DNA of 64,000 nucleotides from an uncultured Chlamydiae bacterium (GCA_963696295.1 CAVOJR010000001.1:2848001-2912000), one strand, 5' to 3'. Shown: positions 40,153 to 41,583, numbered from the stretch's first letter. Notes: generated by a model from the sequence alone, not told the origin. Program-made: numbers and translations.

Positions 40153-41583
40153 TTATGGTTGAACGGTTACACTGGCGGGAATAGAAGTATTGCCAACGTT
40201 ATCGACCGAGACGATGTAATAGGTAACCGGTTCGTTTTTACAATTATGAACTTCAAAGCGCAAGGGTTGATCGCTTAAAACCTGGCCAAGTAAAAGCGTG
40301 AGCTCCTGATCTTGATATATTCGAAATTCGGCAATACTTTTGGAAGGAGCGTTCCAAGTTAAGATATTGACATACTCCGTTTGCGTCGGAAATACGTTGG
40401 CTTTTTGATATCCTTTCAAATTTATGGGCGGTGATAATATAGTCAGCGTTTTACTTGGACATTTCTGTCTTGGCTGCCAATCTGTTGGATCTGAACTTTG
40501 TAAATCTAAAAGGTGATCAAGCACATCCTTTGGAGTGCCCCCTGAACGCAAAATGTTTTTGACGATATCTTCTGTTTCGCTGATCAATGACTGGCTTACC
40601 CCATGCAAATGAAGATTCATTCCATATTGTTTGCCTTTGACATCAATTTGCGACATGATTCCGGACAGAATTTGGATAGCAGTGACCATGCTCACGCTAT
40701 TTCCAAAATCCCCTGTCCCCCATTGGCCTGAATGAATACCCGCTGTCGTATTGCCCGGAGAAAATTCGATGAGAGAGGATATTGCTCCAAGATTGCCCAA
40801 AAGAGACTCTTTAAGAAGGTATTCAAGATTGCTTAATTTATATTGTTTGACTGGAATCGGGGGGGAGGTTTGACACCAATTCAGCGAAGCAATGCCAATA
40901 ATATTAACTTGTTCATACGGCTGCTTCAGTGTAATGATATCGCTATAGACTTGAGCTACAGTTATTAGCTTGAGTGCATCCGCATAAGGGACATTTGATA
41001 CGTCAAAGCGCCTAAATACATCAAAAACAATAAAAGGTTGAGCGTCTTCAGTGGTTGGGAATACTCCGGAAGCCCCTGGACTCACTGGAAGAGGAGGATT
41101 GTTCCTTGCCGCATAAGCTAATTGAGCTAATTGTGGAAATTGGAAAAATATACGTTCTTCCTGTAGATTTCCCATTCCCCGAAACCCTCCTCCAAACTTG
41201 TCCGCATCGGCAAAATCGACCCAAAAAGTTCCATCGGGTTTATAATCATATTCGCCAGGATCGGCAAACACACTAAAATTGATGGTGTTTAAATTGATGG
41301 AGGAATTCAATAATGCTTCAAAATTTTTGTCCGACATCGTAATTTGCGACCAATTAACAAAATCTACTTTAGGCTTAGAATAAGGGTAAGAAATTTGACC
41401 GATAGTCCCTTTTAGAAGCGCTTCTTTCTGAGCGTAAGGTTTTTCTGCCAATAACCAGTCACTGAAGGAAGACTGGGTGCCTGTTAAGTCAGTTTTAACC
41501 CTCTTGACATCGATTGCGCTTTGGGGAACATTGGAATGGCTAAAATTTAAAAAAAACAGCGTTAAAAAGAAAAATTTTCTCAT
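40153..41583 (-). CDS. Secreted poly(ADP-ribose) glycohydrolase (PARG)-family protein with C-terminal FN3-like domain
   Basis: WVDFAD..FGGGFRGMGNLQEE fits GGG-x7-QEE; SGQWGTGDFG loop; signal peptide; LTWNAP...YYIVSVDNVGNTS. Confidence 0.8.
   Translation of the reverse strand: MRKFFFLTLFFLNFSHSNVPQSAIDVKRVKTDLTGTQSSFSDWLLAEKPYAQKEALLKGTIGQISYPYSKPKVDFVNWSQITMSDKNFEALLNSSINLNTINFSVFADPGEYDYKPDGTFWVDFADADKFGGGFRGMGNLQEERIFFQFPQLAQLAYAARNNPPLPVSPGASGVFPTTEDAQPFIVFDVFRRFDVSNVPYADALKLITVAQVYSDIITLKQPYEQVNIIGIASLNWCQTSPPIPVKQYKLSNLEYLLKESLLGNLGAISSLIEFSPGNTTAGIHSGQWGTGDFGNSVSMVTAIQILSGIMSQIDVKGKQYGMNLHLHGVSQSLISETEDIVKNILRSGGTPKDVLDHLLDLQSSDPTDWQPRQKCPSKTLTILSPPINLKGYQKANVFPTQTEYVNILTWNAPSKSIAEFRIYQDQELTLLLGQVLSDQPLRFEVHNCKNEPVTYYIVSVDNVGNTSIPASVTVQP

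Follow-up and report, generated by a model that had tools for sequence, protein, structure and literature searches.

The window considered here is a stretch of 64,000 nucleotides from an uncultured Chlamydiae bacterium (GCA_963696295.1, CAVOJR010000001.1:2848001-2912000), and the gene in question lies at positions 40153-41583 on its minus strand. This locus is confirmed as a reading frame of 476 residues, and its product, designated P0001, joins a Sec-type leader, a domain resembling the canonical poly-ADP-ribose (PAR) glycohydrolases (PARGs), and a C-terminal tail with an FN3 fold. A previous reading of the DNA, made without database searches (the sequence-only reading), had proposed an exported canonical-type PARG that erases host ADP-ribose signals or harvests ADP-ribose. 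The gene holds the following features:

40153-41583, minus strand: whole gene of P0001, comprising leader, PARG-like domain, and FN3 tail; 476 aa (sequence, model)
41588-41591, minus strand: GAGG, resembling a ribosome-binding site, 4 bases before the ATG start codon (sequence)
41533-41583, minus strand: Sec-type signal peptide, residues 1-17, with the cleavage site placed by homologue alignment (heuristic)
40456-41532, minus strand: canonical-type PARG-like domain, residues 18-376, a macrodomain with a reduced accessory part (Pfam, model, structure comparison)
41155-41220, minus strand: catalytic loop V122-E143, with D123, D126 (Asn in canonical PARGs), G131-133, and Q141-E142-E143 (sequence, alignment)
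40984-40986, minus strand: Tyr200, in the column of the clasp tyrosine (human Tyr795) (profile alignment)
40705-40728, minus strand: diphosphate-binding loop G286-F293, with Asp292 for Ala/Val (alignment; codon 292 outside the run contigs)
40597-40599, minus strand: Val329, in the column of human Phe902 (profile alignment)
40156-40455, minus strand: FN3-fold tail, residues 377-476, common to many exported chlamydial proteins (profile, model)

Because a protein identical to the G-A-F homologue P0011, which bears the name Candidatus Protochlamydia phocaeensis, is encoded in a genome of the same order, and the genome of P0001 (3.43 Mb in two contigs) encodes four TLC nucleotide transporters, the source is considered an environmental chlamydia. 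Contigs from X1 and X2 overlap parts of the gene, with codons 200, 292, and 329 uncovered; none of the sequencing runs listed as containing the gene is of RNA. The junction between the PARG-like domain and the tail is spanned without differences by a 160-base contig of sequencing run X1, possibly not independent of the source sample. The codons of D126 and the GGG (X2 record 4) and those of QEE (close to an end of X1 record 2 and of X2 record 3) are also free of differences. Scans for promoters and terminators performed no better than chance.

Fold, active site and relatives of the PARG-like domain

At the level of the predicted fold, the canonical-type assignment of P0001 is sound. In an AlphaFold2 model built from 18 sequences, residues 21-370 mostly reach pLDDT values of 84-98 per ten-residue block, with three blocks at 75-79. 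The macrodomain fold foreseen by the sequence-only reading is present, together with the PARG catalytic loop and an accessory extension, and its best match among 48,161 representative chains is the PARG 4EPP from Tetrahymena (Z 22.1; root-mean-square deviation (rmsd) 3.5; 288 aligned; residues 22-369), compared with Z scores of 18.4 for fly PARG, 13.7 for Deinococcus PARG, and 6.3 for Lpg0081 from Legionella. Foldseek places only canonical PARGs in its top rows (E 2e-10 to 3e-8), with microbial PARGs coming after them at 6e-6 or weaker. Against a 43-sequence family profile, the E values of 15 canonical PARG sequences range from 8e-22 to 8e-17, and those of 8 microbial ones are no better than 4e-5.

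The comparison of family models that had been recommended falls on the canonical side as well: PF05028 matches 43 of the 43 family members, while the microbial model PF10021 matches five of them weakly (best E 8.6e-4), and neither PF10021 nor TIGR02452 matches P0001 in Pfam and NCBIfam. PF05028 (PARG_cat_C) is the single Pfam family found on the whole protein (E 9e-6), where its 25.9 bits just miss the cut-off of 26.3; the PARG domain alone scores 27.1 bits. PF20811 does not match P0001, and its accessory part is shorter than that of the canonical PARGs. NCBIfam assigns no family to the protein, the ESM Atlas yielded no usable match, and the PDB sequences matching it at E <=1, 11 in number and each weak, are all PARGs.

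The catalytic signature described from the sequence holds in full, with V122-D-F-A-D126 and G131-G133 separated by seven residues from Q141-E142-E143, which agrees with the GGG-x6-8-QEE spacing of canonical PARGs. The roles of these residues are taken from excerpts of PMC7050489, PMC3519477, and PMC3741636. P0001 keeps Asp123 (canonical Asp737), the GGG, Gln141-Glu142-Glu143, Tyr200 (Tyr795), Gly289, Gly291, and Phe293, and Asp113 precedes Asp123 by ten residues, as the adenine-binding Glu727 does Asp737, a probable correspondence by ungapped spacing, in a region where the eukaryote-type rows are unaligned. In an alignment of 182 distinct rows (left from 198 after the removal of 16 that were duplicates or overly gapped), the clasp tyrosine is conserved in 155 and the final Glu of QEE in 181.

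On the other hand, the excerpts of PMC7050489 present an Asn before the GGG, a G[A,V][F,Y] patch, and a stacking Phe as canonical features, and all three are replaced in P0001. Asn740 is substituted by Asp126, in a column with Asn in 143 rows and Asp in 19; the patch reads G291-D292-F293, with Asp292 for Ala874; and the adenine-stacking Phe902 is Val329, where eight of the nine eukaryote-type rows hold Phe and one Tyr. His327 was also considered as the counterpart of Phe902 and rejected, as the eukaryote-type rows place this residue at Val329. Since these three defining residues differ, P0001 is classified as a bacterial variant of the canonical type and not as a strict member. Thus, the canonical label given by the sequence-only reading stands for the fold and the catalytic glutamates, but not for the binding site: GGG-x7-QEE is canonical, while VDFAD instead of VDFAN carries the microbial-type residue, and the GxWGxGxFG loop, located at G286-Q-W-G-T-G-D-F-G294, has Asp before its Phe in place of Ala/Val.

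Asp292 deserves separate consideration. Its column holds Ala in 107 rows, Val in 38, Asp in 20, and Glu in 2, and all 22 acidic rows, which belong to several separate branches, keep QEE intact; G-D-F is, by this recurrence, a natural variant. The eight closest homologues share Asp126 and have Val/Ile at 329 as P0001 does, but read EEE and G-A-F, which indicates that P0001 lost an acid at position 141 and acquired one at 292. In human PARG, the two sites border the diphosphate, and it may be speculated that the exchange is compensatory. At 68 near-invariant columns of the clade, P0001 departs only once (Asp292), compared with 0-10 departures for 16 homologues, which speaks against a general decay but flags this site. 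Regarding Val329, excerpts of PMC3741636 report approximately fourfold more endo products for a Phe902Gly mutant and sevenfold more for Phe398Gly. By analogy with the former, Val at this position may favour endo (within-chain) cleavage, or else weaken adenine binding.

To judge from its residues, P0001 is likely, though not certain, to be catalytically active, and it is fairly likely that Glu142 and Glu143 would, as in canonical PARGs, cleave the ribose glycosidic bond of PAR, or of a related ADP-ribose conjugate, at the bacterial surface. Alternatively, P0001 could be an impaired reader or adhesin on the surface, able to bind PAR or ADP-ribosylated material but hydrolysing it poorly on account of Asp292 and Val329. 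In its favour, the hydrophobic patch to which the excerpts of PMC7050489 ascribe the straining of the distal ribose is displaced by Asp292, the stacking Phe is missing, most other cargo bearing the same tail looks adhesin-like, and the macrodomain Incs are proposed as binders in the available part of PMC3048545. However, this explanation is unlikely in view of the QEE-intact acidic rows from several branches, the retention of all the catalytic residues, and the fact that, as far as the excerpts of PMC3519477 describe it, Ala874 contacts the diphosphate through its backbone.

With the canonical PARGs (Tetrahymena 4EPP/4L2H, human 4B1H, fly 8ADJ; PF05028), P0001 shares the fold with part of the accessory region (22-369), D123, GGG-x7-QEE, the clasp Tyr, and the W-G-x-G-x-F loop, but it is only 17% identical, has Asp126, Asp292, and Val329 and a shorter accessory part, and is bacterial, exported, and tail-bearing. 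It is not a PARG of the DUF2263 type either. These microbial enzymes (PF10021; Thermomonospora 3SIG, Deinococcus 5ZDA) have in common with it the macrodomain, the GGG...QEE chemistry, and, according to the excerpts of PMC7050489, an Asp before the GGG, as Asp126 is, whereas P0001 scores lower against them in both structure and profile, and holds a clasp Tyr, an extra N-terminal part, and a leader.

A first search yielded 17 homologues of 264-397 residues; all lack the tail, and most begin with a Sec-type leader. A wider one returned 119 proteins, whose names point to Chlamydiae, Isosphaeraceae, Verrucomicrobiota, Deltaproteobacteria, and eukaryotes. A crude rule detects a Sec-like leader in 34 of the 182 rows, a Tat-like one in 4, and a later hydrophobic segment in 52. 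In a quick tree, the leader-bearing rows form one branch (SH-aLRT 100), whose named members are all chlamydial. A FastTree reconstruction, unrooted and with too few rows to name a transfer donor, places nine eukaryote-type rows in a branch separate from this leader clade. When 400 genomes of the phylum were scored, PARG-like genes appeared in 32 with a narrow profile and in 44 with a wide one (own genome included), and in none of 29 genomes (1.0-1.2 Mb) of family f4, which we take to be the Chlamydiaceae. Leader-clade genes occur in three genomes, including that of P0001, among 30 loci examined. A GTDB scan found five loci, four titled Chlamydiia or Chlamydiales and one an uncultured bacterium, one of 57 viral stretches contained a distant relative, and none of the 596 pattern matches of a metagenome scan with alignment A1 was confirmed.

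Several groups of relatives stand apart. Five proteins (P0197, P0198, P0215, P0219, and P0232), two of them named Verrucomicrobiota/Verrucomicrobiales, make up a branch with twin-arginine-like leaders and a conserved G-D-F. Other chlamydial PARG-like proteins (L009-L013, L015, L019, L022, L028, and L030) hold long N-termini and later hydrophobic segments; by their sequences they are possibly Inc-like, and would be better candidates for host-facing effectors than the leader clade. A divergent branch without GGG, mostly with QDE for QEE (L015-L018, L020, L024, L027-L029, and L033), belongs to family f10, and a gene resembling it (L035:2581-3747) lies on a viral contig among DNA methyltransferase-like open reading frames (ORFs).

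The C-terminal tail and its predicted barrel partner

The homologues stop exactly where P0001 runs on into residues 377-476, and the tail is absent from the other 197 PARG-like rows. With alignment A1, in which no row covers the tail, the full-length model left it below pLDDT 50; folded alone, it becomes a seven-stranded FN3 sandwich with two long initial strands (pLDDT 95.4), which bears out the C-terminal beta-sandwich seen by the sequence-only reading. Its best structural match has a Z of 11.9 (rmsd 2.9; 88 aligned), and most of its 50 matching rows (Z 11.9 to 9.7) are titled FN3 domains or FN3-containing proteins. PF00041 does not match it, and no Pfam or NCBIfam cut-off is reached.

This tail is found in 149 of 401 genomes, in none of 30 from family f4; in P0001's own genome, at least four further proteins carry it. 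It lies 10 residues or fewer from the C-terminus in 110 of 116 carriers, 67 of which, fragments included, pass the crude leader rule. The cargo ahead of it, in the 64 proteins scanned, consists mostly of beta-propellers, PKD, TIG, Big_3, and DUF7948/SBBP domains, with two GH64 glucanases. One tail-bearing gene (G000:C1:1059105-1061638) seems to be split over two overlapping frames, with the leader in the upstream ORF.

A tail fused to a PARG-like protein in only one of 198 rows might suggest a recent accidental fusion or a decaying gene with no current role, as might its composition, AT-rich for its genome (GC 0.41; GC at third codon positions 0.37, the 6th percentile of 1405 long ORFs) in both halves alike, and the lack of a match to the gene in the only genome of the same family that was searched (94% complete). 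Nevertheless, this idea is very improbable, given the open frame, the clean in-frame junction exactly at the homologues' end, the closeness of the tail to the family consensus (E 1.4e-36), and a branch length in the quick tree of 0.22 against 0.25-0.28 for two sister tips.

The likely function of the tail emerges from its association with a small barrel, for which the relevant features are:

40369-40404, minus strand: tail hairpin, residues 394-405 (Phe398 and Gln401 conserved), predicted to lie among the barrel loops (model; barrel outside the window)
G000:C1:2987826-2988404, outside the window: modelled partner, a small barrel of a family of ~190 aa

One tail gene of P0001's genome is directly followed by the gene of a leader-bearing protein of 188 residues ending in Phe, a homologue of which sits in a tail-gene cluster in a genome of another family. 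Members of this barrel family match OMP_b-brl weakly (25 of 36) or OmpW (9 of 36); in the available part of PMC2811131, an OmpW cluster is listed among chlamydial outer-membrane proteins without an anchoring role. The family is present in 198 of 400 genomes, 140 of which hold both tail and barrel and 58 the barrel alone, whereas the tail occurs alone in 9 and neither in 193; these counts used a single query for the tail, and a profile located it beside the barrel in several of the apparently barrel-only genomes. Of the 30 best barrel loci, 15 have a tail gene no more than ~1.5 kb away, in most cases immediately upstream and on the same strand, compared with 0 of 29 control loci, and, among the matches listed, 32 of 123 tails are 5 kb or less from a barrel, where ~0.9 would be expected.

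A second barrel of P0001's genome, G000:C1:2987826, which is not linked to a tail gene, was modelled with the tail of P0001 because 13 of the 20 barrels from loci selected for holding both genes score closer to it than to the first barrel, the 188-residue protein. The predicted complex scores 0.88 in three runs, with 0.01 for the best of three controls, a contact agreement of 100%, and a partner pLDDT of 89. This mark is reached by 116 of 157 solved complexes and by 2 of 215 mismatched pairs, counts that are only rough for the alignments used. In the model, residues 394-405 and 446-450 of the tail contact the four long loops of the barrel; among 36 rows, position 398 is Phe/Tyr in 35, and 31 retain Gln401. 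In standard barrel topology, such long loops face the cell exterior. The complex model supports binding of the tail to the barrel, which, together with the gene linkage, is quite probable, and an outward display of the enzyme is probable: the tail hairpin would plug into the long loops of the small OmpW-like barrel and hold the enzyme on the outer face.

Some variation exists around this pair. A second tail subtype with a Lys/Cys-rich hairpin (L050, L052, L054, L055, L057, L058, L065, L068, L070, L074, and L075) has its gene immediately upstream of that of a matching barrel subtype, which hints at cognate pairs. L067:1027-1995 encodes a barrel-family protein of 323 aa, longer than the others, downstream of a tail gene, and the barrel G000:C1:1061634-1062386, which adjoins one tail gene, belongs to another family.

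The closest analogy is offered by the type B C-terminal-domain cargo of the type IX secretion system, which, in the accessible parts of PMC9143113 and PMC5445135, combines a Sec leader, varied cargo, a C-terminal beta-sandwich, and non-covalent anchoring on dedicated PorP/SprF-like barrels. Unlike that cargo, P0001 comes from another phylum, its tail is an FN3 fold with a long hairpin and without PF18962 (unmatched on P0001 and among the best five families of each of the 64 tail-bearing proteins scanned), and the barrel has ~190 aa and resembles OmpW/OMP_b-brl. Searches of P0001's own genome with PF00644, PF05028, and PF18962 gave no matches, but as their controls were silent too, these zeros show no absence; PF05028 missed even the P0001 gene. 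As a candidate anchoring system, the tail-barrel pair is apparently undescribed.

Probable export, proposed surface display and alternative roles

The Sec-type leader recognised from the sequence has a basic start, a hydrophobic core, a small-x-small site aligned with the homologues, and no Cys, as judged by eye and by a crude hydropathy rule. With such a leader, P0001 would very probably be sent through Sec. This short stretch is its only hydrophobic segment, and it lacks the bilobed segment of Inc-type proteins, so it is not an Inc or an Inc-like type III substrate. Passage through the outer membrane might involve, as a weak candidate, the type II system present in the genome, where a GspF-type gene adjoins a secretin; this locus shows no tie to tail proteins. 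The small barrel itself is unlikely to be the translocation pore. An eight-stranded barrel is too narrow for a folded domain to pass.

The best reading of these data is a surface-tethered enzyme rather than an injected effector: P0001 would be a canonical-fold ADP-ribosyl glycohydrolase displayed on the bacterial surface through docking of its tail on the barrel, to which we assign a probability of about 0.45. The likeliest benefit would be the removal of ADP-ribose marks or polymers at the interface between bacterium and host, whether inclusion lumen, phagosome, or host cytosol, according to the habitat of this chlamydia. Several observations count against it. The genomes surveyed are related, and the co-occurrence counts therefore overstate independence; the sidedness of the complex is taken from standard barrel topology; and the P0001 gene has no adjacent barrel gene, the modelled barrel lying ~98 kb away and being picked by subtype. 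All 21 other leader-clade rows are tail-less, so that tethering is not needed for the function of the family, and the narrow barrel does not account for translocation. In addition, P0001 departs from the three canonical features excerpted from PMC7050489 (Asn before GGG, patch, stacking Phe), and Asp292, its sole change at a near-invariant clade column, lies outside the X1/X2 contigs.

An alternative is a periplasmic or locally released enzyme for scavenging or defence, which would recycle ADP-ribose from PAR of the environment or the host, or strip from envelope proteins the ADP-ribose attached by competitors' toxins, with a tail that is incidental or holds the protein in the envelope. Tail-less homologues are the rule in the leader clade, relatives with Sec and Tat leaders exist in non-chlamydial bacteria, the genome holds the four TLC nucleotide transporters mentioned above, and PMC4245714, as far as its excerpts go, lists PARG homologues from more than 150 bacterial species and suggests that, in bacteria without PARPs, they serve to recycle PAR or to defend against toxins. 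Nonetheless, it is rather unlikely, since the predicted contacts of the tail are on long loops that face outward by topology, transporter, Nudix, or antitoxin genes do not recur beside the gene in six neighbourhoods (where the leader clade showed no recurring gene neighbourhood), and two ordinary macrodomains are already encoded in the genome.

The sequence-only reading had taken export to mean action on host signals, a step that the data do not support in that form. Leader-bearing relatives outside the chlamydiae show that canonical-type PARG-like proteins are also exported by bacteria other than intracellular ones and that export alone does not imply a host target; moreover, as the tail is a generic module of chlamydiae for which docking on a barrel of the outer membrane is predicted, P0001 more likely stays attached to the bacterial surface. 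A released effector that enters the cytosol or nucleus of the host and there erases PAR signalling far from the bacterium would accord with the eukaryote-type fold plus leader, the Fic enzyme and Ser/Thr kinase encoded nearby, the markers of intracellular life in the genome, and the macrodomain effectors reported from Legionella. It is decidedly unlikely, however, because a Sec leader ends in the periplasm, the tail is predicted as a tether, and the chlamydial relatives with long N-termini and later hydrophobic segments suit host delivery better.

Lpg0081/Larg1 and MavL are likewise reported as outward-aimed ADP-ribosyl hydrolases of an intracellular bacterium, Legionella. They differ in being Dot/Icm substrates, whereas P0001 has a Sec leader and QEE and is not a macrodomain of the Lpg0081 type (Z 6.3; rmsd 4.7; 7% identity). 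In the chlamydiae, the available part of PMC3048545 describes macrodomains in 20 putative Incs of the Chlamydiaceae, an ADP-ribose-binding fold that is also proposed to face the host and a precedent for chlamydial interest in ADP-ribose; there, in contrast to P0001, classical macrodomains follow a bilobed hydrophobic segment. In agreement with the sequence-only reading, which knew of no characterised chlamydial example, no paper on a chlamydial PARG or on the FN3 tail was found in the mainly open-access literature searched, supplements being outside its scope, and PMC8120803 does not mention chlamydiae.

Neighbouring genes and significance

In the window, a Fic-domain protein with an intact catalytic motif (41892-42845, plus strand) and a Ser/Thr kinase (43675-44925, plus strand) are encoded near the PARG-like gene, forming a small cluster of modification enzymes. 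Downstream of this gene lies an ORF of 232 aa without Pfam or NCBIfam family (39158-39856, minus strand). Further away are a coiled-coil protein of 489 aa whose interior holds a long hydrophobic stretch (37151-38620, minus strand) and, facing it, a weak CesT/YbjN-like chaperone (36708-37154, plus strand; E ~0.02). Two tandem giant ORFs (26805-36148, minus strand) encode a protein of 1599 aa with DUF3638 (E 4.8e-11) and a weak ResIII domain and another of 1508 aa without family. Tandem repeats occur within 36272-36640 and 45399-45575 (117 bp x 2.4, 44 bp x 2, and 33 bp x 5.4), and the 33-bp repeat adjoins a 95-aa AAA_14 fragment.

Reviews place canonical PARGs mainly in eukaryotes (primarily in higher organisms, in the excerpts of PMC7050489) and a simpler type in bacteria, so P0001 represents an exported bacterial branch of the canonical fold with its catalytic residues intact, in a group that lives inside eukaryotic cells. 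A broader picture is possible but doubtful: environmental chlamydiae would use a new two-partner display, made of the FN3-tail hairpin and an eight-stranded barrel, loaded with an active, endo-leaning PARG of the eukaryote type that clears host PAR from the bacterial surface. This enzyme would be one branch of a wider, uncharacterised radiation of exported bacterial canonical-type PARGs (Sec, Tat, Inc-like), and protist hosts would use ADP-ribosylation against intracellular bacteria. If active, P0001 would provide a handle on this use of ADP-ribosylation in protists, as well as a natural variant lacking Phe902 for studying how exo and endo cleavage are balanced. If the tail-barrel pair is true, it would account for the surface attachment of many exported proteins of environmental chlamydiae that are so far uncharacterised.
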